Origin: Candidatus Omnitrophota bacterium
Lineage (GTDB): Bacteria > Omnitrophota > Gorgyraeia > Aquiviventales > Aquiviventaceae
Length of the DNA stretch: 64,000 nt
Assembly: GCA_023247255.1 (NCBI GenBank)
Contig: JAHFGV010000009.1
Location: 2,773 to 66,772 of the forward strand
Reading direction: 5' to 3'
Of the stretch, positions 1,626 through 61,450 are shown piece after piece. A model generated the notes under the pieces. The model ran no database searches and had not been told where the DNA came from. It saw nothing but the letters and a program-made list of their open reading frames with translations. The position numbers and the translations under genes are program-made. The stretch's first letter is position 1. Each line of letters opens with the position of its first letter.

Positions 1626-2153
1626 CTAGAACAGGTAGCGTTCGCTCTCCCCGTTGTGGGCACGGACGTCAACGGCCTGAACTTGTCTTGGCGCCGTCCA
1701 TTGCACGTGATCCGTCTTTGGTCCAGGCCACGGGCCTCCCAGCGAGAGATTCCACCATTGGAGTTTGCCCACTGTCCGTTCTGAGAGCTCCGTCGTCTCT
1801 GCTCGTTCTGCGCCTTTGGATTGGTGGAATCGGATGCCCTCGTAGGAGGTGTTCGCATCGGGGTAGAACTCATTCAGGAGGCCGCCTCGAAATTCCACGC
1901 TCACGTTGACTGGCTGCGTCTGATCGAACGAGGCCGAGGGATGGAAGTACAGCACCGGGGTCTCAAGCCGCATGGTAACACTCTCGTTGCGATTGGTTGG
2001 ATGAAGCCCTTTATCGACGTCCCTTAACACGTCATCTTTGATGCGGTGGACAAAATCGGGAACGGCTTCCGTGGCTTCGATGACATTCATACCGCCAGCG
2101 ACAAACCCGTTATTGTAGTGTTGGCTGGTGATCGTGCCCCATTCATGGATCAC
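1626..2153 (-). CDS. hypothetical secreted protein. The N-terminal signal-peptide exon-like segment (complement 2178-2276) lies upstream in frame, separated only by TGA at 2175-2177.
   Basis: GTG-start ORF in the track. Upstream in the same frame reads MNIRNRLRSVEENPQWLSVLFTVAAVLSTPTQA-TGA-AQDEPSLVIHEWG, a canonical signal peptide with an AXA cleavage site. Confidence 0.4.
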   Translation of the reverse strand: MIHEWGTITSQHYNNGFVAGGMNVIEATEAVPDFVHRIKDDVLRDVDKGLHPTNRNESVTMRLETPVLYFHPSASFDQTQPVNVSVEFRGGLLNEFYPDANTSYEGIRFHQSKGAERAETTELSERTVGKLQWWNLSLGGPWPGPKTDHVQWTAPRQVQAVDVRAHNGESERYLF

Positions 2154-2473
2154 GAGCGATGGCTCGTCCTGCGCTCATGCCTGAGTTGGCGTCGACAGAA
2201 CGGCTGCGACTGTAAACAAAACGCTCAGCCACTGCGGATTCTCTTCGACACTCCTCAGCCGATTCCTTATGTTCATGAGTACCCTCCGGTTTTCATCCTC
2301 AGCGTGTTAGCTCCCCGAGCGTTCGAGGGGCTGGGAACAGTCGCCAGGCGTTGGCGTGGCGTCTGATAGTCCAGCGATTCATGGAGCCGCTCCGCTTCAT
2401 ACCAGATGCGGTAGAGCTGCCAGGCGACCTGGCCCTCGGCCAGCATCGAGGAGTTACTGTTTTCCGCAGCCTG

Positions 2474-2932
2474 CTAATAGTCACAACGATACGCGAGTTG
2501 CCGGCGAACGTCATCCGGACTCTCGATGAGGTCCGGATACTGGGCGTACACTACTGCAAACGATTTGAAGGATGGAAACTTCCAATTCAAATAACGGCAG
2601 AATCTGGGAGCGTCTTCGTTCGAGAGCACACCGATAAGAACGTTACGCCGAATGTTATCGTAGCCGATAGCGCGGGTAGGAAAAATCTCATGAGGATCCA
2701 AGGGAATACCGGTGTTGTCTCTGATTCCATAAACCTCTGCGAATCCATAAGACTTTCCCACGTGAAAGAACATGATCCAACCTGCCGGAGGAAATAAAAG
2801 AGGTATTCTGGGTAGTTCGCGTTTAAAAAATGGACTGAGATAATTGAGCCGAAAAGTCTGGTAATGGAACACGAGCGTCCAGAGGATGACAAACAGGGTA
2901 ATAACCCTATGCCGCAATCGAAGGGTTACCAT
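2474..2932 (-). CDS. hypothetical N-terminally membrane-anchored protein
   Basis: 152-aa ORF with one N-terminal hydrophobic helix (ITLFVILWTLVF); last gene of the minus-strand block before the 450-bp divergent intergenic region. Confidence 0.4.
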   Translation of the reverse strand: MVTLRLRHRVITLFVILWTLVFHYQTFRLNYLSPFFKRELPRIPLLFPPAGWIMFFHVGKSYGFAEVYGIRDNTGIPLDPHEIFPTRAIGYDNIRRNVLIGVLSNEDAPRFCRYLNWKFPSFKSFAVVYAQYPDLIESPDDVRRQLAYRCDY

Positions 2933-3476
2933 AGCAAAGAGTATACTCCTTTGCCTGTTCCTGAGTTATTCCTATTATTGCGCTAGAAACTTGATACCGC
3001 CTCTTGTAATCTGTTCTCCCACGCCCCACGTCTCCCGCCCCCTGCCCCTGTCTTTAATTCCCCTTGCCTCTAGTTTTAACTCCCTCGCCCCGTGCACTCA
3101 CGCCTTAAGCGAAGACGAGTTTCTCGGCATTCTATTAGGCTTAAGGGATGTGGAACCGGATACTGTTGTCGTATTCCAGATAAGTGTTGATTTTATCAGA
3201 CAGCTTTCAGAGAAGATTTAAGAGAAGAAAGCCATTAACAGACTGAGGAAGAACCCTTAACCCTGAACCGACTGGTATTTTTCAGCATCCTGTTAGTGCT
3301 CAATCCTCATCCCAAAGATCTTCCATGCTTTTCACGGGTTAGTTTTTTAACCCATCTGTTTTCAAGTAGTTATACATCAAGAAATGTATTTATTAAGTTT
3401 CTTGTCTGAGTTCTGGTACGTAACCTGCTTACATAGACTGTCACAGACTGTCCTAGTAGAAGGAGGCTATAGAAGT

Positions 3477-7095: not shown

Positions 7096-7137
7096 ACGTA
7101 ATAAACGTAACACGTGACATGTTCACGTAACACGTAG

Positions 7138-7477
7138 CGAGGAACAGAAAAATACCCCTGGCTATCGGAAACTCCAGGGGTGGCAAGCTGCCATCGTCTG
7201 GCACATGAGGTTTATCGAGTTACCAGAAACTTCCCCCAAGAAGAACGGTTTGGAATAGTTGCCCAATGTAAGATGGGCTGCGCTTTCTGTGCCTACACAT
7301 TTAGTTGAAGGCCATGCTCGTGCTGGAAAACGAGAGCTGAGACGGTTCGTCGCTATGGCGCTCGGTTCGTTGGCAGAAGTCGAGTATCTCTTAGAACTGG
7401 GCTTTTGCAAAAATAGCCAACGCGTTGACCGAGTGTTGTGTCATTTCCCAAGAGAAGGTAATGAGGATTGTGTCATG
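7138..7477 (+). pseudogene. four-helix-bundle protein (23S rRNA intervening-sequence protein family) pseudogene: no start codon, frameshift near 7265, 3' end interrupted by MITE
   Basis: Frame A (7138-7255) reads ...SETPGVASCHRLAHEVYRVTRNFPQEERFGIVAQ. A second frame (7259-) reads VRWAALSVPTHLVEGHARAGKRELRRFVAMALGSLAEVEYLLELGF. Together these align to the intact paralogue at 9570-9932 (…NTIYKLTSTFPKEESYGLISQMRRAAVSVPVNIAEGYARNHRAELRQFLYVALGSLAELETL). Confidence 0.5.
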
Positions 7478-7586
7478 TTTCATGAGTCATGTGTCATGAA
7501 AAAAGCAGAAAATAAACAGGCATATCAAGCACGGCCAAAGTACGCCTTTTGCTTTCCATGACACATAACACATGACTCATGAAACA
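7469..7586. repeat. MITE-like hairpin repeat, copy 1 (arms built from CATGACACA/TGTGTCATG units around a ~58-bp core)
   Basis: Left arm tgtgtcatgtttcatgagtcatgtgtcatg, right arm catgacacataacacatgactcatgaaaca; core near-identical (1-2 mismatches) to reverse complement of 61338-61396. Confidence 0.55.
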
Positions 7587-7661
7587 GACGTGAGCGCTGC
7601 CACTAATCTCGATGCATTTTGCAAAACCTCTGTCACTTGTTACGTGTTACGGGAGTAACGA

Positions 7662-8582
7662 ATGAGCAAAATCACTCAGGCCCTTGAGAAGGCGGCGCGG
7701 GAGAGGCTCCAGCGCGAGAAGGAACAAGTTACAGTCGCTGCCAAGGAAACCACGATTCCCTTGGCCGCTTCGGCTCTTTCCGATATCGCCTCTGCGGGAG
7801 AGATCCAGATCGATTCCCACATTGTGGGAGCTACCGATTCGCAGTCTCCTATCGCTGAGCAATACCGCATCCTGCGCACTAATCTCCAGTCCTTGCGCTT
7901 TCAGTCGAGTCCAAAGGCCATCGTCATCACAAGCTCCGTGCATGGGGAAGGCAAGTCCGTGACTGCCCTCAATCTGGCCTTGGCTTTTTCCCGTCAAGAA
8001 AATCTCCGCGTAGTGCTCGTCGATGGGGATCTGCGCAAGGGTACGATTTGGAAATGGTTAGGTCTGCCTGAGCGTAGCGACGGTCTTGCGAGTGTGCTGC
8101 AAAGTGGCGGCCAGCTTAACGGTTCATTGGTGCGATTGCATCAGCCACCCCTGACGATTCTTCCGGCTGGTCTTGCTCCGGAACATCCTGCTGAGCTTCT
8201 GGAATCTTCCAGTATGAAGCGGCTGATTGGTACGCTGAAGGCTCAGTTCGACTTGGTTCTGATCGACTCTCCTCCTGTGCTTCCGGTTTCCGATCCCGGT
8301 ATTCTGGCCTCTCAGGTGGACGGGGTGTTGTTCGTTGTTCGAGCCGGCAGGACCCAGCGAAAGACGGTGATACAGGCCCAAAATCTCCTCAAGCAGATGA
8401 AGGCAACCTTCTTGGGTTGTGTCTTGACGCATGTGGAGTACTACCTTCCCGGCTATTACCGCTACTACCAGTATCGGTATGGCTCGAAAGAGCAGACAAG
8501 TGGCAAGGGAGTTAAAGACGGGGGCACGGGGCAAGAGACAGGGGGCGAGGGAAGACAAAAAGTACAAAGGAATACAGGTTAA
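7662..8582 (+). CDS. BY-family protein tyrosine autokinase (CpsD/CapB/Wzc cytoplasmic domain type)
   Basis: P-loop SSVHGEGKSVTALNLA, Walker B LVLIDSPPVL, C-terminal tyrosine cluster YYLPGYYRYYQYRYG. Confidence 0.8.
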   Translation: MSKITQALEKAARERLQREKEQVTVAAKETTIPLAASALSDIASAGEIQIDSHIVGATDSQSPIAEQYRILRTNLQSLRFQSSPKAIVITSSVHGEGKSVTALNLALAFSRQENLRVVLVDGDLRKGTIWKWLGLPERSDGLASVLQSGGQLNGSLVRLHQPPLTILPAGLAPEHPAELLESSSMKRLIGTLKAQFDLVLIDSPPVLPVSDPGILASQVDGVLFVVRAGRTQRKTVIQAQNLLKQMKATFLGCVLTHVEYYLPGYYRYYQYRYGSKEQTSGKGVKDGGTGQETGGEGRQKVQRNTG

Positions 8583-8752
8583 AAGATTACAAGATAAGAG
8601 ATGAAAAATACTAGGACCGGTTTTAAAAAAGGACGGGCGATGTCTAACTTTCAAGATTTGTGGGGATCTCTTATCAGTTCCCCCGCCCCCCGCCTCTCAT
8701 CCCCTGCCCCTAGTTTTGACTCCCTCGCCCCACGTCCCTTGCCCCATACTTT

Positions 8753-9541: not shown

Positions 9542-9545
9542 AAGC

Positions 9546-9969
9546 GAGACAGGAGACAGGAGACAAGTGATGAAGCCAATTAAAAGTTACAGGGATCTTG
9601 AAACCTGGCAAGAGGGAATACGTCTTGTGAATACCATCTACAAACTTACCAGTACCTTTCCCAAAGAGGAGAGTTACGGACTCATTAGCCAGATGAGGCG
9701 TGCGGCTGTTTCTGTTCCAGTCAATATAGCGGAGGGGTATGCTCGCAACCACCGGGCGGAATTACGCCAATTCCTCTATGTTGCACTTGGGTCATTAGCT
9801 GAATTAGAAACGCTTAGCATTGTGGCTTGTCAAGTTAGTTATATTGATCAGGCCTGTCTCTCAAGAGAGCTTGAATCGTCCATAGCGGTCTTACGTTTTA
9901 AGACCTTAGCCTTCTTGCGTCATTTGAGGTAGCTTGCCATGTCTCCTGTCTCCTGTCTCCTGTCTCCTG
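9546..9969. mobile_element. hairpin-terminated insertion between wzm and wzt carrying the four-helix-bundle gene; arms are heptamer arrays (GAGACAG)x3 at 9546-9567 and (GTCTCCT)x4 at 9941-9969
   Basis: Arms are reverse complements of each other; right arm supplies the ATG and first ~10 codons (MSPVSCLLSPAP) of the downstream ABC ATPase. Confidence 0.4.
9570..9932 (+). CDS. four-helix-bundle protein (23S rRNA intervening-sequence protein family)
   Basis: MKPIKSYRDLETWQEGIRLVNTIYKLTSTFPKEESYGLISQMRRAAVSVPVNIAEGYARNHRAELRQFLYVALGSLAELETL matches family signature; track start 9441 overlaps wzm and is rejected. Confidence 0.7.
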   Translation: MKPIKSYRDLETWQEGIRLVNTIYKLTSTFPKEESYGLISQMRRAAVSVPVNIAEGYARNHRAELRQFLYVALGSLAELETLSIVACQVSYIDQACLSRELESSIAVLRFKTLAFLRHLR

Positions 9970-11216
9970 CGCCATGTCCCATTACGTTCGATCACGTCTG
10001 GAAACGCTACCGCATAGGCTCCAAACATGACAGCCTCCGCGATGCGATTCCTCGATTCTTTAAGCAAGAGGCCGGACTCAATGGACAATCATTGCACGAA
10101 GGCGAGTTCTGGGCGATTCAGGACGTGACTTTTGAAGTCAAACATGCCGAGACCGTGGGCATCATCGGACCCAATGGGGCGGGCAAGAGTACCGCTTTGA
10201 AACTGCTCTCCAAAATCTGCAAGCAAACGAAAGGACAGATACAAGTGATCGGCCGCCTGGCCGCGTTGATTGAAGTGGGTGCCGGTTTTCATCCTGATCT
10301 GACCGGCCGCGAAAATATTTATCTCAACGGGACCATCATGGGTCTGCGCCGCAAAGAGATCGACCGACTCTTTGATTCGATCGTGGAGTTCTCGGAACTT
10401 AAAGACTTCCTCGAGATGCCCGTGAAGCGTTACTCTTCGGGAATGGCGGTGCGTCTGGGATTTTCGGTCGCCGCTCACGTCAACCCGGAGGTTTTGCTGA
10501 TCGATGAGGTGCTTGCCGTCGGGGATCTCGTTTTTCAGCAGAAATGTTACCAACGCCTGCAGGATCTAAAGGCGGCTGGGACGACAATCGTGTTTATCTC
10601 GCACAACCTGGAGGCGATTCAACGGCTCTGTGACCGCGTTGTTCTCCTGGACAAGGGGCTCCTCATCCAGGAAGGAAATCCGGCCGAGGTCATCGCGGGC
10701 TATCGCAACAAGGTCCTCCAGACATACCGTTCCAAGATGCGCCTGCCGCATGGCAATGTCATCGAGGAACGGTCTCTCGATGAGGTGGCATTCACGCAGG
10801 CTTTTCTCACAGACGCCTCTGGCAATATCTCAGACGCATTCTCTACGGGAGATACCGTCAGATTGCACCTGAGCTACCACGCTAAGCGGAATATCGAGCA
10901 GCCCAGGATTGTGGTTACGATCGAACGCCTCGATGGACTCGTCTGCCACACCACCTCAACCGCACATGCCATAGATGCATTCACTATCTCCGAAGGCGAC
11001 GCTAGCCTGATGTTGGAATACGACGCTTTGAACCTGTTGCCAAACACGTATCGGATTCAGGCAGCCCTCTTCGAACATAACAATCCCGTTCCCTTGTCCG
11101 CATCCAGCTATCAACTCTATTTCACCTTGACCTCAGACAGTCCTGAGATTGGGGCTGTGCATCTCGATCATCACTGGGACACAAAGGTGATTCCTGCAAG
11201 AGACAAAGTCCATTAA
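9939..11216 (+). CDS. ABC transporter ATP-binding protein Wzt-like with ~150-aa C-terminal extension (probable carbohydrate/terminal-cap binding domain)
   Basis: Walker A GPNGAGKST, signature YSSGMAVRLGFS, Walker B LLIDEVLAVGD; residues ~270-425 form an extra domain beyond the NBD. Confidence 0.8.
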   Translation: MSPVSCLLSPAPCPITFDHVWKRYRIGSKHDSLRDAIPRFFKQEAGLNGQSLHEGEFWAIQDVTFEVKHAETVGIIGPNGAGKSTALKLLSKICKQTKGQIQVIGRLAALIEVGAGFHPDLTGRENIYLNGTIMGLRRKEIDRLFDSIVEFSELKDFLEMPVKRYSSGMAVRLGFSVAAHVNPEVLLIDEVLAVGDLVFQQKCYQRLQDLKAAGTTIVFISHNLEAIQRLCDRVVLLDKGLLIQEGNPAEVIAGYRNKVLQTYRSKMRLPHGNVIEERSLDEVAFTQAFLTDASGNISDAFSTGDTVRLHLSYHAKRNIEQPRIVVTIERLDGLVCHTTSTAHAIDAFTISEGDASLMLEYDALNLLPNTYRIQAALFEHNNPVPLSASSYQLYFTLTSDSPEIGAVHLDHHWDTKVIPARDKVH

Positions 11217-25653: not shown

Positions 25654-27120
25654 ATGGCTTTCAAGTCCTTTAACACGGCGATTCCGGTTGCGCTGCAGAC
25701 GCGGCGAGCGCTCCCCACCATTGACCGGCGCATATGGCTCATGGCGGTTTTGGCCTGTGGGTTTGCGGTCTTGGTGATGAAGGAGGTCGCATTGCCTTCA
25801 TCCCTCATCTTAGTTTTTGGGGGGCTGGGACTCTTCGCTTTGTTTGCAGTCGGCCTCCAGAGTCCGGAGATTCCGTTCTACGTGCTGGTTGCTTACCTCC
25901 CGTTTAGCCGTCTACTCGTCGGTGATTTCGGTACCCAGGCGACGGCGCTGAATCTTACCAACATCTTCACCTTAGGGGTGTTCATCGCTCATGTGTTTCG
26001 GCAAGGAGCGCGTGGACAAGCCCCATTTCAATCCACACCGTTGAATCGTATGATCTCGTTGTTCTGCGCCTTAGGGGCGGCCGCTTTGATACGGGCGGGT
26101 TGGGATTATGGTTCCTGGTATGCCTGGCACTATCTCATTCCCCTCAAGCGTTGGCTTACCCCGATGTTTCTTTACTTCCTCACGCTTTGGGTGGTGCGAG
26201 ATAAAAGAGTGCTGAAGACTTCAGCGATCCTCATCATGATCGTCGTGACTCTGGTTGCCCTCATGGCGATTCGGGATTACATGAATGTCGAGGGAAGCGG
26301 CTTTGAAGCCTCGCGCATCGGAGGGATCGCCGAACATTCCAATACCTTGGGGGCTTTCTTCGTCTACTACATGTTTTTACATCTAGGTTTCTTCCTCACC
26401 CACACTTCGAGGCCTCGAGCGTGGCTTTTATTGATTCCGTTTCTGCTTTGCTTCCGGGGAATCATGGTGACATTCTCCCGCGGGGCTTACCTGGCATTCG
26501 CGATAGGATCTCTGGCAGCCTGTTGGTTTCGACATAAGCTCTTGTTCGTTACCGCCGTAGTCGCACTGGTGTTTGCGATTCTCAATCCGACGTTGTTGCC
26601 TTCAGGGATTCGCTACCGGATGGGAATGACGATAATTCATCATGATACGGGTGTGGTTCAAGAGGACATCACGCAGAACCTCGAGGGCAGCTCGGCCTCG
26701 CGTATTGAGATATGGCGCGGAGCGCTCAAGATGATCCAGGATCATCCTTGGTGGGGGGTCGGTTACGAAGCCTTTCCTCGGTTCATGCCAAGTTATACCG
26801 AGGGAAAGATCGGATACATGGACGCCCATAATAGCTATCTCTTAATCGCTGCAGAGATGGGTTTACCGACTCTCGGTGTCTTTCTACTCGTTCTTTTAAT
26901 GATTGGATACTATACCCACTGGCTCTATCGGCATGCCCAGGACAAGGCGTTGAAGGCTATCGCCCTGGGATTCTTGGCGGGGTTGGCCGGGCTGTGGGTG
27001 GCGAATCTCTTCGGTTCACGCATGGACCACGCAGAGGTATCCGGATACTTCTGGATTATTTGTGGCCTTATTATGCGCGGCGTGTTGATTGAGCGGCAGG
27101 AATTAGCACACAGCAAATAG
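25654..27120 (+). CDS. O-antigen ligase/polymerase family membrane protein (Wzy_C-like)
   Basis: ~11 TM helices with a periplasmic loop; DAHNSYLLIAAEMGLPTLGVFLL matches the O-antigen ligase/Wzy_C motif. Confidence 0.65.
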   Translation: MAFKSFNTAIPVALQTRRALPTIDRRIWLMAVLACGFAVLVMKEVALPSSLILVFGGLGLFALFAVGLQSPEIPFYVLVAYLPFSRLLVGDFGTQATALNLTNIFTLGVFIAHVFRQGARGQAPFQSTPLNRMISLFCALGAAALIRAGWDYGSWYAWHYLIPLKRWLTPMFLYFLTLWVVRDKRVLKTSAILIMIVVTLVALMAIRDYMNVEGSGFEASRIGGIAEHSNTLGAFFVYYMFLHLGFFLTHTSRPRAWLLLIPFLLCFRGIMVTFSRGAYLAFAIGSLAACWFRHKLLFVTAVVALVFAILNPTLLPSGIRYRMGMTIIHHDTGVVQEDITQNLEGSSASRIEIWRGALKMIQDHPWWGVGYEAFPRFMPSYTEGKIGYMDAHNSYLLIAAEMGLPTLGVFLLVLLMIGYYTHWLYRHAQDKALKAIALGFLAGLAGLWVANLFGSRMDHAEVSGYFWIICGLIMRGVLIERQELAHSK

Positions 27121-27147
27121 CACACAGCACATGGCAGACACAACGGA

Positions 27148-29631
27148 ATGAAGGGATCCCACTCCGAACTCCAAACTCCGAATTCCGAATCCCGAACTGG
27201 GAAACATGTCCTATATCCCAGCCTGGGTATGATCGTTTCCCAATTCCCAGAGATGCACGAGACGTTCATCATGCGGGAACTGAGCGCGTTGCGCGATGCA
27301 GGAATTCCTCTGCGTATCTATTCATTGAAACGCTGCCGCGATCCTATCGTACATCCGCAAGCGCAAAAACTTCTCGGGTTGACTCGCTATGTGGTATGGA
27401 ACGATGCCGTTGTTTGGGTACGTGCGGCCGGGTTAGTTCTCCGGCGTCCGATGCGGGCGTTCTCGATACTCGGCTGGGTGGTTCGCCATCATTCTGGGAG
27501 GGCTTTCCTTTTGGCAAAGGCGCTCGTGGTATGGGCACAGGCGATTGTAATCGCCGAGAAGATGCGCGAGGAGGGGATTACGCATATCCATGCGCATTGG
27601 GCAACGGTGCCGACGACGGCGGCTGTGATCGCTTCCGATTGGCTGGGTATTCCCTTTAGCTTCACGGCGCACGCGTGGGATATCTTTGTTCGGAATCCAT
27701 CCCTGAAAGAGAAGATACGACTTTCAGCTAGGGTGATGACCTGCACGGATTACAACCGGCGGTTTCTCCAGCACTTGTGTCCGGGAGAGCGAGAGAAGAT
27801 CATCGTGAACTATCACGGCGTGGACCTCGGGAAGTTTCAACAACTACAACAAGAGACAAGAAACAGGGGACAGGGGACATGTTTTGTGTCTCCTATCTCC
27901 CGTCTCCCGTCTCCCGTCTCCTGTCCCGTTTTTCTATCGGTGGGTCGGCTCGTTGAGACCAAAGGCTATCCTGTTCTTTTGGAAGCCTACCGACGGCTGA
28001 AGTCGGAGGGCATGGCGTTTCACGCGGTGATCGTTGGGGAAGGTTGCCTGCGTGATAGGCTGGAACATCAGATTCGTGTGAACCATCTGGCCGATGTCGT
28101 CGAGTTGAGAAACGCGATGGGGCAGGAGGCACTACGCAAGCTCTATCGGGATGCCTTCGCCTTTGTCCTGCCTTGCACCGTTGCTGAAGACGGGGACCGC
28201 GATGGGATTCCGAATGTCATTCTCGAGGCCATGGCTTGTAGTTTGCCGATAGTCTCGACACAGATCTCGGGAATCCCAGAAGCCGTGCAGGATCGCCGCA
28301 GCGGATTGTTGGTTCCACCCAACGATGGGGAAGAGCTCGCTCGCGCCTTGAAACTTTTGCTGCAGCGGCCGAGTTTTGCCCGTGTATTGGGTGACCACGG
28401 GCGAATGTGGGCGGAGTGTACGTTTGACGCCCGCGAGCATATGCAACAACTCGTGGTTCGGATGAGGGGGTTGTTAGAGAAATCTGTTAGACCCGTTAAC
28501 GTCATGTACGTCATTTGGTCGCTGGAGGTCGGTGGGGCAGAGCGTGTTGTGATGACGCTCGCCAGTGGCCTGGACCGTAAGCGGTTTTCTCCGATCGTGG
28601 TGTGTCTCAATCAGGAAGGACGTATGGCGGCCATGCTTAAACAGCAAGGGATTACTGTGATTGCCCTGAACAAGCGTCCGGGAGTCGATTTGGGGATGCT
28701 GGTGCGTCTGGCGTGGTTGATGAGGCAGCATGGCGTGCAAGTTGTGCACGCGCATCTATGGGGAGCGAATCTGTGGGCGCGTATCGCTGCCATGATGGCA
28801 AGGGTACCGGTCGTCATTGTCCACGAACACGGGATGCAGCCTTGGCGAGGAACCTGGCATTTCCGAATCGACCGTTGGCTGGGACGAAGAACGAGCCGGA
28901 TTCTCTTTGCATCCTCGGAAGTCATGCAGAAGTATGGTGCAAAGACGGGGATGGCACAAAGGCGTTGCCTGTGGGTTCCCAATGGAATCGACGGGAGGCC
29001 GCAAGGATTGGATCGTACCCGTTTGCGAGCACGATTGGGTTTTTCCGATGAAGATCGCGTCGTGATCAGTGTCGGCCGACTCTCACCAGAGAAAGGGCAT
29101 GAAGATTTGTTGCTTGCCTTCGCTCAACTGAGGCAACAGGTGCCTCAGGCGCGTTTGGTATTGGTAGGAGACGGGATAGAGCGAGACACGCTCCAGGCGC
29201 TTCAAGCACGCTGTGGACTTAACGGTGAAGTGACCTTCGCGGGAGTGCAGGACGACGTGCGTCCGTGGCTCGCTGCTGCCGACGTCTACGTTCAGCCTTC
29301 GAGGCGGGAAGGTTTGTCACTGGCCGTTCTTGAGGCGATGGCCTTCGGGCTTCCCGTCATCGCGACCCATGTAGGGGATACGGCACGTGTCATTACCGAT
29401 GGAATGACAGGATACCTAGTGCCTGCTCAGCAACCGGAGGTCTTATCGGCTAAGCTCAAGCAGGTTCTCGATCAACGGGATCAGCAAGGAACTTTAGTAG
29501 AGGCGGCCCGCGCGCTTGTGCAGCGTGATTACTCCGAGCGCCAGATGGTGGGGATAGTGGAGAGGGTTTACGAGGAAGAACTCGTCAAAGAAACAATAAT
29601 TAGCACACAGCAATTAGTACACAGCACATAG
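27148..29631 (+). CDS. tandem GT4–GT4 glycosyltransferase (WbdA-like architecture)
   Basis: Two complete GT4 modules: DGIPNVILEAMACSLPIVSTQISGIPEAV (res ~350) and REGLSLAVLEAMAFGLPVIATHVGDTARVI (res ~720). Confidence 0.8.
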   Translation: MKGSHSELQTPNSESRTGKHVLYPSLGMIVSQFPEMHETFIMRELSALRDAGIPLRIYSLKRCRDPIVHPQAQKLLGLTRYVVWNDAVVWVRAAGLVLRRPMRAFSILGWVVRHHSGRAFLLAKALVVWAQAIVIAEKMREEGITHIHAHWATVPTTAAVIASDWLGIPFSFTAHAWDIFVRNPSLKEKIRLSARVMTCTDYNRRFLQHLCPGEREKIIVNYHGVDLGKFQQLQQETRNRGQGTCFVSPISRLPSPVSCPVFLSVGRLVETKGYPVLLEAYRRLKSEGMAFHAVIVGEGCLRDRLEHQIRVNHLADVVELRNAMGQEALRKLYRDAFAFVLPCTVAEDGDRDGIPNVILEAMACSLPIVSTQISGIPEAVQDRRSGLLVPPNDGEELARALKLLLQRPSFARVLGDHGRMWAECTFDAREHMQQLVVRMRGLLEKSVRPVNVMYVIWSLEVGGAERVVMTLASGLDRKRFSPIVVCLNQEGRMAAMLKQQGITVIALNKRPGVDLGMLVRLAWLMRQHGVQVVHAHLWGANLWARIAAMMARVPVVIVHEHGMQPWRGTWHFRIDRWLGRRTSRILFASSEVMQKYGAKTGMAQRRCLWVPNGIDGRPQGLDRTRLRARLGFSDEDRVVISVGRLSPEKGHEDLLLAFAQLRQQVPQARLVLVGDGIERDTLQALQARCGLNGEVTFAGVQDDVRPWLAAADVYVQPSRREGLSLAVLEAMAFGLPVIATHVGDTARVITDGMTGYLVPAQQPEVLSAKLKQVLDQRDQQGTLVEAARALVQRDYSERQMVGIVERVYEEELVKETIISTQQLVHST
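27853..27927. repeat. 75-bp hairpin repeat inserted in frame inside the GT4–GT4 gene (arms gagacaagaaacaggggacaggggaca / tctcctatctcccgtctcccgtctcccgtctcctgtccc)
   Basis: Self-complementary arms around tgttttgtg loop; encodes RNRGQGTCFVSPISRLPSPVSCP linker; same GACAGG/CCTGTC heptamer family as 9546-9969. Confidence 0.5.
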
Positions 29632-29634
29632 CAT

Positions 29635-31128
29635 ATGGCAGACCGCAAACCGAAAACTGCTTCCCAGCCACGTAGGCACGTAGGCACGGATGCACGACGT
29701 GTCTCCTCTGCCTTGTCTGCTCTCCCACGTTTCAAGCGTAAGGTTGTCATGGGGCTGAGCTTATTGCTCATCATCGGTTACGTGGCTAAGCTCGTCGATA
29801 CGCGCTATCCCTGGCTGTGGGCTTACCTGCTGGATCAGATCAGACCTCAGACGGTGCAAGCATCCGCAGGCCCGACCCACGTCCTGTTCACTTTCGTCGA
29901 CCATTTTGAACCGCACGACCAAGCGACCATGGATCGGTGGATGAGCGCTTATCCCCAGATGGCTGCGCGCCATCGCGATGCCGATGGACGTTTTCCGCAA
30001 CACTCGTGGTTTTGGCATTTCAGCTATGCCGATGGATTCGAGACCTTGTCGTACCTGAAGCAGCTGGCCGAGCTTTCTTATCAAGGATTCGGAGAGGTGG
30101 AGCTGCACCTGCACCATGGGCCCGATTCCGAAGAGAGCTTTTTAGAGCTCATGCGCAAGCGCCTGCAACTTTCACGATGGACGGGTTCGATGGTGACGGC
30201 CGAGACAAGGCCACAGACGCATTTTGGATTCATTCACGGATTATGGGCGCTGGACAATTCACGCGGGGGTAAGACCTGCGGTGTCAATAATGAGTTGACG
30301 CTGCTGGCACGTTTAGGCTGCTATGCGGATTTTACGCACCCCTCATGGGGGCCTATGCATCCGCGGATGGTCAATCGGCTTTACTACGCGACGGACGATC
30401 CGATGCGTCCTAAGTCCTATGACCGAGGTCCGGTCATGCAGGTGGGACGCTTACCTATCGGGGACCTGCTCATTTTCGAAGGGCCCAGTGTGGTGCGCTT
30501 GCGCGGTATCAAACCCGTCTATGACCATGGGGATGTGACGCAGGTAGATCTTCCGACCTCCGAGCGCGTCGATGCCTGGGTGCGAACCGGTATTCACGTC
30601 GAGGGACGTCCCGAGTGGGTTTTTATCAAAGTCTACACGCATGGGGCCATTGCGCGAGACCATGAGGCAGTCCTAGGACGCTGGAGCGACCGGATGCATG
30701 AATACCTGGAAGGTCATTACAACGATGGTGAGCGTTACGTCCTGCACTACGTCACGGCCCGCGAGGCCTACAACATCGCCAAGGCTGCGGAGGTGGGTAA
30801 ATCTGGGGATCCCAATGCGTTCCGTGATTTCGTTATCCCTCCCTACGCGAACCGGACCCTCATAGCCTCCGTACCCTATGAGCTCATCAGCGCTGACGAA
30901 GAGAAGTTGTGGGTGCGGTTGCTGACGCCACCCAGCAGTCGTGTAAGTATGCGATTGCATGCGCGCGTCGTTGACGTTTCTGGCGATGCGTCTGACATCG
31001 TGATTGAGCCCACGGATGAAGATACAGGGCTTACTCTCGCCACGACAGGAGAAGGAATCGTAACGTTTGAGTATGAGAGAAGAGGTATCAATCAGCAAGT
31101 AGCACATAGAGCAGATGGTACAAGATGA
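29635..31128 (+). CDS. hypothetical membrane-anchored protein (alternative start 29749)
   Basis: Single TM (MGLSLLLIIGYVAKLV) then large soluble domain with His-rich motifs (ELHLHHG); the region 29635-29748 overlaps a repeat so the true start may be the ATG at 29749. Confidence 0.5.
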   Translation: MADRKPKTASQPRRHVGTDARRVSSALSALPRFKRKVVMGLSLLLIIGYVAKLVDTRYPWLWAYLLDQIRPQTVQASAGPTHVLFTFVDHFEPHDQATMDRWMSAYPQMAARHRDADGRFPQHSWFWHFSYADGFETLSYLKQLAELSYQGFGEVELHLHHGPDSEESFLELMRKRLQLSRWTGSMVTAETRPQTHFGFIHGLWALDNSRGGKTCGVNNELTLLARLGCYADFTHPSWGPMHPRMVNRLYYATDDPMRPKSYDRGPVMQVGRLPIGDLLIFEGPSVVRLRGIKPVYDHGDVTQVDLPTSERVDAWVRTGIHVEGRPEWVFIKVYTHGAIARDHEAVLGRWSDRMHEYLEGHYNDGERYVLHYVTAREAYNIAKAAEVGKSGDPNAFRDFVIPPYANRTLIASVPYELISADEEKLWVRLLTPPSSRVSMRLHARVVDVSGDASDIVIEPTDEDTGLTLATTGEGIVTFEYERRGINQQVAHRADGTR

Positions 31129-32303
31129 ACCGAGCGACGAGCGACGAGCAACGAACCACGTCCCCCGCACCTTGCCCCATAAAGGTGGTCTACGTGATTG
31201 ACGATTTGGGCCTGGGAGGGGCGCAGAGGCAACTGACCGAGCTCGTTAGGGCGATCGACCGCAGCCGGTATCAGCCTTACGTGGTGAGTCTTTCAACCCA
31301 GCGCTTGGCTTACGCTAAGAATATTCGTGAGCTTGAGATTCCCTTGACGCTGATTGAGCATGAAGGGATATGGTCTTGGCGAACCCTTTGGCAGATCCTT
31401 CGCTTGCTGCAAAGGGTGCGGCCTACCGTCGTGCACACGTGGCTTTTCACCGCCGATCTCTATGGACGCCTGGCGGCTTGGCTGACGCGCGTGCCGGTGA
31501 TCGTCAGTGCCGTCCGCAGCGTGGATCCTTGGAAGCCGAGACATTACATTTTTGCGGATCGGCTCTTGTGCAATGTGACGAGCGCTTTTACTGTCAATGC
31601 GCAGGCTATCGGCGAGGTGCTTCGTAAGCGAGAGGGCGTTGAGCCCTCCAAACTCCATACGATCTATAACGGGGTGGATCTTTCGGCGTTCGATCCTTCG
31701 ATTCAGGATGGAGCGCTCCGGCGTCATCTTGGACTGGATAGAGTCGTTCGGCTTGTGGGTATCGTCGGACGTCTGGCTCCGGAGAAGGATCATCAGACGT
31801 TTCTGCACTCCGCAAGGTTGGTGGTAGAGCGTCATCCGGATGTTCGTTTCCTCATCGTCGGCAATGGTCCGCTGCGATCCGAGCTCGATGCGATGATCCG
31901 CAAGCTGAAACTACAGGCTCATGTCCACATGCTGGAGAGTCAGCAGCCGATCACTCCGATCTTCGCCGCCCTCGATATGGTTGTCGTCAGCTCGCGCTAC
32001 GAAGGCTGCTGCAACGTCATTCTAGAGGCTATGGCGATGGGCAAGCCCGTTATCGCCACAGACGTAGGAGGAAATCCGGAGTTGGTGAGTCACGAAGAAA
32101 CGGGATTTTTGATTCCGCCCGGGGAGCCCCAAGCGATGGCTGAGGCTATCGAGCGACTCTTGCAGCAGCGCTCTCGCGCGCAGTACTTCGGGCAGCAGGC
32201 GCGGCGTATCGTAGAGTCCCGGTTTAATCTGAAGCGCATGATCGATCAGACGATGGCTTTGTATGACGCACTGCTATGTCGTGTTGGCCCGTTAACGCGT
32301 TAG
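31125..32303 (+). CDS. glycosyltransferase family 4
   Basis: VVYVIDDLGLGGAQRQ N-terminus and EGCCNVILEAMAMGKPVIATDVGGNPELV C-terminal GT4 motif. Confidence 0.8.
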   Translation: MNRATSDEQRTTSPAPCPIKVVYVIDDLGLGGAQRQLTELVRAIDRSRYQPYVVSLSTQRLAYAKNIRELEIPLTLIEHEGIWSWRTLWQILRLLQRVRPTVVHTWLFTADLYGRLAAWLTRVPVIVSAVRSVDPWKPRHYIFADRLLCNVTSAFTVNAQAIGEVLRKREGVEPSKLHTIYNGVDLSAFDPSIQDGALRRHLGLDRVVRLVGIVGRLAPEKDHQTFLHSARLVVERHPDVRFLIVGNGPLRSELDAMIRKLKLQAHVHMLESQQPITPIFAALDMVVVSSRYEGCCNVILEAMAMGKPVIATDVGGNPELVSHEETGFLIPPGEPQAMAEAIERLLQQRSRAQYFGQQARRIVESRFNLKRMIDQTMALYDALLCRVGPLTR

Positions 32304-36525: not shown

Positions 36526-36903
36526 GTGACAAGGGATAAATTAGGTTTGCGCGTTAGCCCGTTAAAATCTTAAACCCGCAAACGCGCTAACTTTTTTGGT
36601 TCTTCCGGCTTTGCAGTGGTTAAAAGGAACAATACTTCCCTCTCCCCAAAGGGGAGAGGGATCGGGTGAGGGGAAGATACTCAGGAGAGCGGAGAATAGG
36701 TTGCATTACCGCCATGCCGATTCGACGCTGCACTCAGCGCAAGGGGCAACCTTTCATTTGCTGCGCTCAGTATGAGTGAAGCCGATCCGATTGGCACATT
36801 TCCCTCCACCAACCCCCCCTCGCCCTAACCCTCTCCCTTTTCAGGGAGAGGGGAAAGAATGCCCATGGTAATCCCGGAAGCGCCAGCTTTTTAAGGTATC
36901 CTC

Positions 36904-46839: not shown

Positions 46840-46973
46840 CCGAGACATCCCGCCCACCCGTTCGCTGAAGCAAACCAACTGGGCGGATGGCCGAAGGCCG
46901 TTGGCCTATGACAGGACAGTTTCTCCCATCTCCCATTCTCCCCCAGTCATTTCCCATCATCGCATAAAGCTTC

Positions 46974-52190: not shown

Positions 52191-52421
52191 TTTGCGAGAA
52201 TCCAGTTAAAGGGTGCAAAGGGATAACGGACGGATGTGGAGAAAAGAATAAGCATAGCATGTTTGATGCCAACTGGCAACAAAAAATCCGATTCAAAATA
52301 ATCGTTATTAGACCTTGACAGCGAGGGTGAGTTAAGGGTATAGTTTTGCCACTATTGTGGCAGGAAGTGGAAGGAAGTGGTTTCCCACTTCAGAGGAAGT
52401 GGGGGAGGTTAGTGTTGTGTC

Positions 52422-52859
52422 ATGTTTTATGGAGAGTACGCACACACCATTGATCGCAAGGGCCGCATCATTGTGCCGGCCAAGTTTCGGCAAGTGCTGA
52501 AAGAGCAGCAGATTCATTCCTTGTTCATCACGCGTGGCTTGGATGGATGTCTTTTTCTGTTTCCGGAAGCAGAATGGCGCATCGCTGAGAATCGATTCAA
52601 GCAGATCCCTTTTACCAAAGGGGAAGGGCGCAAGTTTACCCGGCTTCTGTTTTCCGGTGCGATGGAGGTGACCATCGATTCCCTCGGGCGGCTCCATGTG
52701 CCCAAGACCCTGAAGGAGTTTGCCGGGATCAAACAAGATGTGGTGGTCGTCGGAGTTTCCAACCGAATGGAAGTTTGGTCGAAAGAGAATTGGCAGGTGT
52801 TTTACGAAAGCTCGCGACAGAGCTTTGAAGAAGTCGCTGAGCGCGTGATGGTGGAGTAA
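52422..52859 (+). CDS. mraZ: transcriptional regulator MraZ
   Basis: MFYGEYAHTIDRKGRIIVPAKFRQ start and duplicated MraZ domain. Confidence 0.85.
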   Translation: MFYGEYAHTIDRKGRIIVPAKFRQVLKEQQIHSLFITRGLDGCLFLFPEAEWRIAENRFKQIPFTKGEGRKFTRLLFSGAMEVTIDSLGRLHVPKTLKEFAGIKQDVVVVGVSNRMEVWSKENWQVFYESSRQSFEEVAERVMVE

Positions 52860-52900
52860 TCAGAAATCAGAACTCAGGGTGTGGTAGTTCTCAACCCCGG

Positions 52901-59869: not shown

Positions 59870-61302
59870 CGGTTGCTGTTGCGCTCTCAGGATCGGTCCA
59901 TACGCTGGAGGGTTGGGCGTCTCAGAAATCTGTGTCTGATGTGTTTGGAGATAGCTGGGCCGGACGTCGAGTCACCGTCTTGGGGTTGGCCAGAAGTGGC
60001 GTTGCTGCGGCTGAGTTGCTTTGTCGAATCGGTTGTCGGGTGGGGCTTTCGGAGCTTCGGGATACGCCGGCCACACGCTCGGCGCAGGCGATACTGCGAG
60101 AACGAGGCATAGAGGTTGTAGAACTCGGGGGGCACTCTCGAGAGCTCATTACCGCATCGGATCTCGTGGTGGTCAGCCCTGGGATTTCGGAGACTGCCGA
60201 GCCTGTTGTGTGGGCCCGTGAGCTGGGATTGCCGGTCTTAAGCGAGATTGAGCTGGCCTTTCATTTCTGTCCGGTACCAGTCGTCGCTGTCACCGGCACT
60301 AACGGAAAGAGTACCGTGGTGACGCTCATTGCCGAAGTTCTGCGCAGTTGTGGCAGGCAAGCGATCGCCTGCGGCAACTTAGGCCTTCCTTTTTCAGCCG
60401 TGATCGGACGATTCGGTCCCAAGGGTATTGCAGTGGTAGAGGTTAGTTCTTTTCAGCTTCTTCATTGTGAGCGCTTTCGACCCCGTATTGGAGTCCTGTT
60501 AAATCTGGGTACCAACCACCTTGACCGCCATCCGAATTGGCAAACCTATTGTGAAGCCAAACGGCGGCTGTTCCAAGCGCAAACCCAAAAGGATTGGGCG
60601 GTGCTCAACGGGACCGATACCTCGGTCGTGGCGTTGGGTGAGGGACTGCTCGCTCAGCGCGTGTGGTTCGGTCAGAATCGGTCCAATGGCCCCGATTGGT
60701 TTCTGAGTCCCAAGACCCAGGCCAGTTTATCTGAGACGGCACAGGCGGTCCTTCAGGTGGCGCGGATTCTCGATATCCCGGATCCGTTGACCTGGCAGGT
60801 GATTCGTTCGTTTCGGGGATTGGAACATCGATTGGAGCCTGTGGCGACGATCCGCGGGATTCGATTCATCAACGATTCTAAATCGACCACACCGGAAAGC
60901 CTGCTGTATGCCTTGAAACGTCTTTCCGGGGAACTGGTGTTGATCATCGGAGGAAGGGACAAGGGTTTAAACTTCCAGCCGTTGATTGCCGCGCTTAAAG
61001 AGCCGCGCATCAAGGGACTGGTGTTGATCGGAGAATCCCGTCGCAGACTTCGTCAGTTACTGGATGAGGCTCTCCTCGCTGAGTTTGTCTCTCATGGTCG
61101 ATCCGTTGGCGCATCCTCTCGTTCTGTTTGGCAAGTGCGCGAATGCGACTCGTTGGAACAGGCCCTTGAGGCTGCGATTTCTCTGGCTCATCCGGGGACC
61201 ACGGTGCTGTTTTCTCCCGCGTGCGCCAGCTTTGACATGTTCCAGGATTTCGAACAACGAGGCCAGCGTTTCAAGGCAATCGTGCAGAAGCTGGTGTCAT
61301 GA
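59866..61302 (+). CDS. murD: UDP-N-acetylmuramoylalanine–D-glutamate ligase
   Basis: VVAVTGTNGKSTV P-loop, N-terminal Rossmann VTVLGLARSG. Confidence 0.85.
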   Translation: MTVAVALSGSVHTLEGWASQKSVSDVFGDSWAGRRVTVLGLARSGVAAAELLCRIGCRVGLSELRDTPATRSAQAILRERGIEVVELGGHSRELITASDLVVVSPGISETAEPVVWARELGLPVLSEIELAFHFCPVPVVAVTGTNGKSTVVTLIAEVLRSCGRQAIACGNLGLPFSAVIGRFGPKGIAVVEVSSFQLLHCERFRPRIGVLLNLGTNHLDRHPNWQTYCEAKRRLFQAQTQKDWAVLNGTDTSVVALGEGLLAQRVWFGQNRSNGPDWFLSPKTQASLSETAQAVLQVARILDIPDPLTWQVIRSFRGLEHRLEPVATIRGIRFINDSKSTTPESLLYALKRLSGELVLIIGGRDKGLNFQPLIAALKEPRIKGLVLIGESRRRLRQLLDEALLAEFVSHGRSVGASSRSVWQVRECDSLEQALEAAISLAHPGTTVLFSPACASFDMFQDFEQRGQRFKAIVQKLVS

Positions 61303-61450
61303 AAGACTGTTTCATGTTTCATGTGTCATGAGTCATGGAAAGCAAAAGGCGTACTTTGGCCGTGCTTGAGATGCCTGTTTATTTTCTGCTTTTTTCATGA
61401 CACATGAACCATGACACAGCCCTTATTACTTCTCTTGGAACATGACACAA
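61297..61450. repeat. MITE-like hairpin repeat, copy 2 (inverted relative to copy 1), occupying the whole murD–ftsW spacer
   Basis: 61338-61396 equals reverse complement of 7501-7560 with 1-2 mismatches; flanking TGTGTCATG/CATGACACA arrays; murD stop lies in the first unit. Confidence 0.55.

Follow-up and report, generated by a model that had tools for sequence, protein, structure and literature searches.

An in-frame hairpin of inverted heptamer arrays in the hinge of an Omnitrophota glycosyltransferase resembles intervening-sequence cassettes

A 64 kb stretch from the genome of an Omnitrophota bacterium (contig JAHFGV010000009.1; below, the window, to which all copy counts of units and elements refer) contains a 75-bp element made of two inverted arrays of 7-nt units, which lies in frame within a gene for a fused glycosyltransferase (GT) of the GT4-GT4 type. 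On balance, we favour reading these 75 bp as a degenerate, cargo-less hairpin resembling the intervening sequences (IVSs) of ribosomal RNA, located in a tolerant hinge of the enzyme and translated as a disordered loop. This reading draws on the anatomy of the element, on the expansion of the hinge relative to homologues, on the repeat unit and polarity that the element has in common with a cassette around a four-helix-bundle (4HB) gene in the same window, on the generality of such cassettes, on length variation by 7 nt and on in-frame parallels in other genes.

The element consists of a purine-rich left arm, a short loop and a pyrimidine-rich right arm (Table 1). A first reading of the window made from its letters alone (below, the sequence-only reading) had described two arms around a 9-nt loop at 27853-27927, and they are present as quoted. 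It had also called the repeat self-complementary and exactly 75 bp long. The arms are indeed inverted, but they are unequal in length and imperfectly complementary (70-85% over 20-30 nt), and 75 bp is a chosen boundary: a single heptamer register covers 77 nt, with four purine-rich units, one loop unit and six GTCTCCY-type units, and the excess over homologous genes is smaller than either figure. Tandem Repeats Finder returned ACAGGGG x2.4 for the left arm and GTCTCCC x5.4 (score 55) for the right arm, where the exact period-7 run is 26 nt long. The element thus holds at least three tandem copies of a 7-nt unit, as bacterial heptameric tandem repeats do, and its two arrays form a convergent (inverted) pair in close proximity, an arrangement described in Xanthomonas (PMC4692102). 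No stop codon occurs at 27853-27929 in any of the three sense frames, and an ATG at the border of left arm and loop (27878-27880) is out of frame. The 75 nt make up 25 in-frame codons of the open reading frame (ORF) 27148..29631 and encode ETRNRGQGTCFVSPISRLPSPVSCP, followed by VFLSVGRL; the 25 codons ahead of FLSVGRL had been recognised correctly, with a peptide that omitted the first two residues. An assembly artefact was ruled out by three concordant assemblies, the stretch 27853-27927 being identical in two independent ones of the same organism (ENA ERZ27276474 and Logan SRR14366783).

The element lies where the two Rossmann lobes of the first GT4 module, N-lobe and C-lobe, are joined by a hinge. 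It had been assigned to the linker that joins the two GT4 modules, an assignment contradicted by Pfam, by the homologues and by the AlphaFold model; this linker lies about 200 residues beyond the element. The AlphaFold2 model of the first module (ma266939f672f) has a mean predicted local distance difference test score (pLDDT) of 91.9 and two Rossmann-like lobes and, together with the Pfam matches, gives the product of the host gene a GT-B fold with a Glyco_transf_4 N-lobe and a Glycos_transf_1 C-lobe. The homologues P0002, P0003 and P0014 are likewise GT4 fusions. The true start of the host gene is likely M28 (27229) rather than the called start, because the sequence at 27161-27197 is another heptamer array.

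Comparison with homologues showed that the hinge is long. The distance from the HGxD motif to SVGRL is 37 residues in the window GT, against a median of 19 (range 17-39) among 101 homologues, 76 of which have 17-20. Similarly, 30 residues separate a conserved Phe from (L/V)FLSVGRL, against 12-16 in the three nearest orthologues, which are 59-62% identical and include two fusions; their hinge DNA is unrelated and non-repetitive. Judged from these alignments and from the model, the hinge is expanded by about 18-22 residues. The excess amounts to about 54-66 nt, which nine heptamers (63 nt, or 21 codons) would fit. The proposal that the 25 residues are an insertion therefore holds as an expansion (37 versus 19), but not all 25 are demonstrably inserted. 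In the model, the only internal segment of the first module with a pLDDT below 50 is E236-V257, and it starts exactly at the first base of the element; this agrees with the earlier suggestion that the repeat is tolerated in a linker. The homologue with the longest hinge (P0083, Leptolyngbyaceae, SSASPFSSPLSSPLP) has a pyrimidine-rich tract that is not clearly heptameric, and it was not counted as a parallel. A sequence search of the PDB matched the C-lobe alone, to 6kih, and was uninformative for the hinge.

Both in their heptamer family, GAGACAG/CTGTCTC, and in their polarity, the arms of the element agree with those of an intact 4HB gene in the window (the sister cassette, Table 1). When up to two mismatches were allowed, 14-mers of the two arms had 5 and 10 matches in the window, where 0.46 and 0.45 were expected, and except for one weak match at 46921 all fell in the element and in the arms of the 4HB gene (9544-9968), as the sequence-only reading had supposed in linking the two sites. 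The GAGACAG-type family occurs at 2-3 sites in the 64 kb, and the other arrays of the window are built on other units. The left arm of the element is richer in G than in C on the plus strand, which is the polarity of upstream arms in 4HB cassettes. Exact tandem runs of period 7 numbered four in the window, with none expected, and among the other periods from 3 to 15 a single exact run was found, of period 8.

The sister cassette (9546-9969) is wedged between the gene of an ABC-2 permease and that of its ATPase, and its 20-nt arms are 100% complementary. It has the marks of an ORF-containing IVS, namely an S23p/4HB ORF in the loop and heptamers before its ATG, and the 75-bp element has neither. 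The right arm provides the start codon and the first ~10 codons (MSPVSCLLSP) of the ATPase gene (9939..11216); this peptide resembles SPVSCP of the GT hinge because the heptamer is common to both. In a strain with a 96%-identical 4HB protein, the spacer between permease and 4HB genes is 35 nt long instead of 28 nt, a difference of one heptamer.

In order to assess how general this architecture is, we compared 80 metagenomic loci with homologues (42-64% identity) of one 4HB protein. Inverted arms were scored between the 150 nt upstream and the 150 nt downstream of the 4HB gene, a score of at least 12 being counted as arms; 66 of the loci had enough flank, and a small control set was formed by 44 other ORFs of the same loci. 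Inverted flanking arms were found at 43/66 4HB loci and at 1/44 control ORFs (Mann-Whitney p=7e-14). Their period was 7 in 35 of the 43 loci and 8 in another 6, and the unit varied from locus to locus (AGTGGTC, TCAGGGG, GTGAGTT, GGCATTA and others). On the sense strand of the 4HB gene the upstream arm contained more G than C in 39/43 loci (p=3e-8). None of the 80 loci lay inside an rRNA gene. The same architecture is present on Nostoc plasmids: GGGTGTG... / ...CCTACAC around NPUN_RS34290 on pNPUN01 of Nostoc punctiforme and TAGGGAG x8 / TCCCTAC x4 around HUN01_RS02755 on pNe_5 of N. edaphicum. Short-loop heptamer hairpins devoid of cargo adjoin the cassettes of three loci (L049, L058, L064). 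In the limited literature collection that was searched, no publication was found that connects heptamer arms with 4HB genes located outside rRNA.

Several further observations were made on these loci. In L019, L053 and L057 the 4HB gene is flanked by two tRNA genes that lie about 470-570 nt from each other, possibly in the spacer of an rRNA operon, and cassettes therefore also occur in stable-RNA transcripts outside rRNA genes. Plasmids alpha and gamma of Nostoc PCC 7120 (L094 and L095) encode an identical 4HB protein with a downstream array only (CTTCTGC/CCTCTGC x5); upstream, the 4HB gene of the gamma plasmid directly adjoins a gene for an ISL3 transposase, so that the left arm may have been lost there. 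Only two control ORFs had heptamer-type inverted flanks (L064 298-663 and L051 175-537); each encodes ~120 aa, and they may be divergent 4HB paralogues or other cargo. Contigs with 4HB homologues were mostly under 3 kb, and at two places (L011 1050-1367 and the start of L005) Logan contigs break or join chimerically precisely at a TGTCTCC array; this points to heptamer arms as a systematic cause of fragmentation in metagenome assemblies.

Heptamer arrays were also found in frame within other genes next to 4HB cassettes. In L034, the gene directly downstream of the 4HB gene (346-1656) encodes a UDP-GlcNAc 2-epimerase whose Pfam match extends over positions 11-346 of the 347-position profile. 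It carries in-frame CTCACCY arrays at 375-395, at the N-terminus, at 469-524 and at 947-1030, the last one comprising 12 units, or 28 codons, in the middle of the protein, and the complementary GTGAG stands at the contig start, immediately 5' of the 4HB start codon. In L080, a gene for an E2 acyltransferase (1858-3231) starts within the right arm of the 4HB cassette. Its heptamers, in the flexible linker between the lipoyl and E3-binding domains, form an inverted pair (2148-2180 / 2215-2245, 77-80% complementary) and belong to the family found in the adjacent cassette arms. Judged by these sequences, the window hairpin is one instance of a recurrent pattern. Long ORFs with apparent arrays in L025, L067 and L091 proved to be frames reading through cassettes and were rejected as in-gene cases.

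We then considered the folding of the element. As sense RNA it reached a minimum free energy of -29.7 kcal/mol (z -3.0 against shuffles), with an apical loop of 5 nt in the minimum-free-energy fold, and as antisense RNA -37.4 kcal/mol (z -4.6). An effect on mRNA structure or translation had been thought possible from the sequence; the sense-strand hairpin exceeds shuffled sequences only moderately. As single-stranded DNA the element folded no differently from shuffles (z -0.75 and -1.4). The complement of the right arm is a G3N4-type array, (GGGAGAC)n, and a scan for G-quadruplex (G4) motifs detected G3N9G3N4G3N4G3 on the minus (template) strand at 27899-27927. This is one of 11 such motifs in the window, most of which lie inside inverted-arm or C-rich repeat elements. 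When G-quadruplexes were enabled in ViennaRNA, the hairpin was still preferred over G4. Rfam at gathering threshold gave no match anywhere in the window, and a terminator and promoter scan around the GT gene revealed nothing at the element. In L080 the antisense RNA also folds better than the sense RNA (z -5.1 versus -0.7).

The element could be seen as a maintained regulatory structure, either an entry site for RNase III or decay in the GT mRNA or its antisense, or a template-strand (GGGAGAC)n G-quadruplex that slows distal transcription. RNA folds that beat shuffles on both strands, the stronger antisense fold that recurs in L080 and the minus-strand motif are in line with such a role, as are the formation of G4 in vitro by G3N4 heptamers and the frequent convergent inverted pairs of Xanthomonas (PMC4692102) and the cleavage of IVS stems by RNase III (PMC4990558). 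We nevertheless hold this explanation to be quite improbable: the arms do not covary, ViennaRNA favours the hairpin over G4, neither a terminator-like nor an Rfam signal was detected, a single instance is at hand, and for repeats of this kind Rehm et al. saw no role in regulation (PMC4692102).

The expansion could also be a home-grown, low-complexity linker, produced by slippage of a chance heptamer seed and by local inverted duplication, in which case it would have no relation to 4HB genes and its hairpin no role. This explanation appears unlikely to us, since the unit family is that of the 4HB arms and is otherwise absent from the window, the pair is inverted with the polarity of a cassette, and L080 repeats the pattern, with an inverted pair in a linker beside a cassette of the same heptamer. 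It does draw on real features of the data, however: partnerless period-7 arrays are common at gene ends and starts (27161-27197, 31129-31156, 52855-52878), hinges of many lengths are tolerated, the arms differ in length and pair poorly, with a DNA fold that is not significant, and the arrays inside the L034 gene are direct only.

Since the unit is not a multiple of 3 and the gene is a glycosyltransferase of an exopolysaccharide/lipopolysaccharide cluster, we also asked whether the element might be a contingency locus, at which gain or loss of 7-nt units shifts the frame and switches a surface-polysaccharide glycosyltransferase off and on. Lipooligosaccharide genes of Haemophilus, Neisseria and Campylobacter are the classic target class of such phase variation, and a 7-nt difference between strains was seen at the 4HB arm. 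On the other hand, the element has only about 3 perfect units, the three assemblies are identical (a very thin sampling), and an exact look-up in a collection of 15 billion proteins retrieved 0/9 of the GT products predicted for changes of +/-1 to 3 units. The organism, a Candidatus Omnitrophota bacterium judging by its MurE, is, moreover, environmental and not a host-adapted pathogen, and phase variation at this site would seem far-fetched.

The sequence-only reading had interpreted the repeat as an empty miniature inverted-repeat transposable element (MITE), that is, a non-autonomous transposon that ends in terminal inverted repeats and is moved by a transposase supplied in trans. Its inverted ends, its small size and its position inside a gene have the look of a MITE, and a different hairpin of 118-123 nt, present twice in the window (7469-7586 and 61302-61424), indicates that dispersed hairpin repeats exist here. 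The interpretation does not stand up well against the remaining data and we consider it very improbable. By eye, no target-site duplication is visible at the 75-nt or the 77-nt boundaries, the flanks ...CTACAACAA and GTTTTTCTA... having no direct repeat in common, and the window contains neither a second copy of the element nor an associated transposase; the related cargo is a 4HB protein and not a known transposase. Furthermore, the arm unit differs by locus, unlike the fixed terminal inverted repeats that one enzyme recognises.

A degenerate IVS-like hairpin as the origin of the 75 bp has to be weighed against several points. No empty-site allele was found and the protein search returned no relative above 62% identity, so that any boundaries and mode of arrival are tentative; a scan of GTDB species representatives with the GT likewise gave distant relatives only (22-35% identity) and no empty-site allele. 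Hinge length varies in the family, four or five homologues having long, unrelated hinges. The arms have diverged without compensatory changes, and the hairpin exceeds shuffles moderately as sense RNA and not at all as DNA. The direct-only arrays of L034 show that heptamer arrays within genes need not be hairpins. Finally, the element and the 4HB cassette are 18 kb apart, and the 64 kb contain one hairpin only of this heptamer type. The G/A-rich heptamer that they share could be a convergence, which is conceivable because 4HB arms are compositionally biased in general.

With these points taken into account, we infer the following course of events for the IVS-like hairpin. In its cargo-bearing form, a pair of inverted heptamer arms brackets the gene of a 4HB (S23p / 23S-rRNA-IVS) protein, as at 9546-9969, and this 4HB parent has less the look of a transposon than of an intervening sequence of rRNA type that resides outside rRNA. 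An ORF-less copy or footprint of GAGACAG/CTGTCTC type, of common origin with the cassette, would have lodged in the length-tolerant GT4 hinge, where its translation would yield about 22 residues of disordered, Ser/Pro-rich loop; it would have been retained because its sense frames are free of stops and its net length keeps the reading frame. Slippage would lengthen or shorten such arrays by 7 nt at a time. Within a coding sequence the frame survives only steps of 21 nt, and the units would therefore have drifted apart, leaving the arms poorly paired. For the enzyme, the element is by now most likely nearly neutral. If it were still active, it would, by analogy with rRNA IVSs, act at the level of the transcript, through a double-stranded though imperfect stem like those that RNase III cleaves, and there would be less intact GT mRNA.

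A broader proposal can be put forward tentatively, as a possibility that we regard as doubtful in its entirety. 4HB (S23p/Avd-like) genes and their locus-specific inverted heptamer arrays might together constitute a widespread, undescribed class of self-propagating cassette, in effect IVSs outside rRNA, spanning Omnitrophota, Cyanobacteria and many uncultured lineages. The arms of these cassettes might seed the enigmatic heptamer repeats of short tandemly repeated repetitive (STRR) type in bacterial genomes, including in-frame arrays in permissive enzyme loops, the 75-bp hairpin might be a cargo-less derivative or excision footprint, and the 4HB protein might act on the arms by binding, protecting or propagating them. 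Heptamer tandem repeats, rRNA intervening sequences and the very abundant 4HB/S23p proteins, all three unexplained, may then be one system: the window holds heptamer repeats, an IVS-like architecture and a 4HB protein together, and the comparison of 80 loci shows the architecture to be general and to occur outside rRNA. If this were true, such elements could enter protein-coding sequence and be translated, they would contribute variation to the loops and linkers of enzymes, and in practice they would give rise to short contigs and, in annotated metagenomes, to doubtful start codons.

Table 1. Features of the element, its host gene and the sister cassette (positions in the window).
Feature	Position	Strand	Description
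Host gene, GT4-GT4 fusion glycosyltransferase	27148..29631	+	827 aa as called; Pfam: two Glyco_transf_4 + Glycos_transf_1 sets
Left (5') arm	27853..27879	+	27 nt, gagacaagaaacaggggacaggggaca, purine-rich: GAGACAA GAAACAG GGGACAG GGGACA
Loop	27880..27888	+	9 nt, TGTTTTGTG (tgttttgtg); in heptamer register one unit, GTTTTGT
Right (3') arm	27889..27927	+	39 nt, tctcctatctcccgtctcccgtctcccgtctcctgtccc, pyrimidine-rich: (G)TCTCCT ATCTCCC GTCTCCC GTCTCCC GTCTCCT GTCCC
Whole element in one register	27853..27929	+	77 nt, 11 consecutive heptamers: GAGACAA GAAACAG GGGACAG GGGACAT GTTTTGT GTCTCCT ATCTCCC GTCTCCC GTCTCCC GTCTCCT GTCCCGT
Disordered segment E236-V257	27853..27918	+	Construct residues 209-230; pLDDT < 50; sole internal one in first module
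Candidate G-quadruplex oligonucleotide			GGGACAGGAGACGGGAGACGGGAGACGGG
Left arm, sister cassette	9546..9565	+	GAGACAG x3
4HB (23S rRNA IVS / S23p family) gene	9570..9932	+	Intact, cassette cargo; TIGR02436 E=1.3e-29; PF05635 '23S rRNA intervening sequence protein' in collection annotation
Right arm, sister cassette	9940..9969	+	TGTCTCC x4.3

The window contains other repeats of related design. ACGTAAC-type inverted arms at 7123-7148 and 7629-7654 surround a decayed, frame-broken 4HB gene (about 7150-7440), and nested inside this cassette (7123-7654) is the 118-nt hairpin at 7469-7586, which has CATGACA-type heptamer arms. Its second copy at 61302-61424 is reverse-oriented, with a common core of ~60 nt, and lies between murD and ftsW in the division and cell wall (dcw) cluster; its RNA fold has a z of about -6.5 on both strands, and it could be a small dispersed element or a small RNA. 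Two further pairs of G-rich and C-rich inverted arms have G4 motifs on opposite strands in their two arms. The first (8494-8552 / 8680-8745, GGGGCAAGAGACAGGGGGCGAGGGA / TCCCTCGCCCC...) encloses 168 nt, its left arm forming the C-terminal codons of gene 7662..8582, and a related C-rich array without partner stands at 3020-3091; the second (36648-36673 / 36816-36841, 85% complementary) encloses 142 nt between two genes. A TTCTCCC/ATCTCCC array at 46921-46955 has the unit type of the right arm of the element and a G4 motif on the minus strand, with no obvious partner. In the glycosyltransferase cluster, the consecutive gene junctions at 27104-27140, 29598-29640 and 31098-31125 have a common motif, TAGCACACAGCA...ATGGCAGAC, and just past the next ATG stand arrays of ACTCCGA x5.4 (27161-27197), CACGTAGG x3.5 (29669-29696) and CGAGCGA x3.4 (31129-31156); as these tandem arrays differ and follow right after the ATG at all three junctions, the annotated N-termini are doubtful. 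Direct repeats containing GTGG at 52357-52410 precede ORF 52422..52859, with which the dcw cluster begins; judged by position alone, they look like a putative MraZ operator, with no relation to the heptamer elements.

Among known systems, G-rich heptameric repeats have been described in Xanthomonas (GGGAATC) and in Nostoc (GGGGA(C/T)T), and each Xanthomonas genome holds 70-75 cases in which two repeat sites converge at a short distance; in vitro, G3N4 heptamer repeats adopt G4 structures, and Rehm et al. detected no regulatory role for them (PMC4692102). The element resembles these repeats in its tandem 7-nt units of G3-4N3-4 type, often arranged as two convergent arrays close together and unexplained in function, and in the preference of the G-rich strand for the non-coding strand inside ORFs. 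It differs from them in that one heptamer dominates those genomes, whereas here and in the 4HB loci the heptamer is specific to the locus, and in that those repeats are mostly intergenic, with no 4HB link reported.

Cyanobacterial short tandemly repeated repetitive (STRR) sequences are short tandem heptamer arrays as well. In Geobacter metallireducens, GGACCGG x4 arrays occupy 49 sites, in genes as well as between them (PMC2700814), and TAACTGA repeats are found in Beggiatoaceae, Cyanobacteria and Bacteroidetes, the arrays of Beggiatoaceae lying near start codons (PMC4679880). All of these share with the element the form of short, unexplained heptamer arrays, abundant at gene boundaries and occasionally inside ORFs, but they are mostly direct arrays of one genome-wide unit, in contrast to the locus-specific inverted pairs described here. 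We know of no in-frame hairpin in an enzyme hinge among them.

MITEs and REPINs, built from repetitive extragenic palindromic (REP) sequences, are like the element in being small, with inverted ends and no coding capacity, in or near genes. The element, however, has no target-site duplication, cognate transposase or REP-associated tyrosine transposase (RAYT), its arms are tandem arrays that vary between loci, and multiple near-identical copies are absent from the available sequence. Three other candidates were rejected on anatomy: integron attC sites, which are single-sided, REP/REPIN, in which REP is a fixed sequence with a RAYT transposase, and CRISPR, which consists of direct repeats with spacers.

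The closest described relative is the IVS in the 23S rRNA of Coxiella burnetii, in which a terminal stem of 28 bp encloses an S23p ORF, GACAGAT heptamers in tandem, two or three of them depending on the strain, precede the ATG, and RNase III cleaves at the first repeat (PMC4990558). Differences from rRNA IVSs are evident: the 75-nt element is inside a GT4 coding gene and its sister cassette between two ABC-transporter genes, the stem of the element is degenerate, and excision from an mRNA by RNase III would destroy the message instead of being harmless. The likeness nevertheless extends from the general plan, a stem built from terminal inverted repeats whose loop may hold an S23p/four-helix-bundle ORF, to the sequence itself, as the window cassette reads GACAGGA GACAGGA GACAAGT G-ATG at the same position. 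IVSs without an ORF exist in Salmonella and other bacteria, and it is to this ORF-less version that the 75-bp element corresponds.

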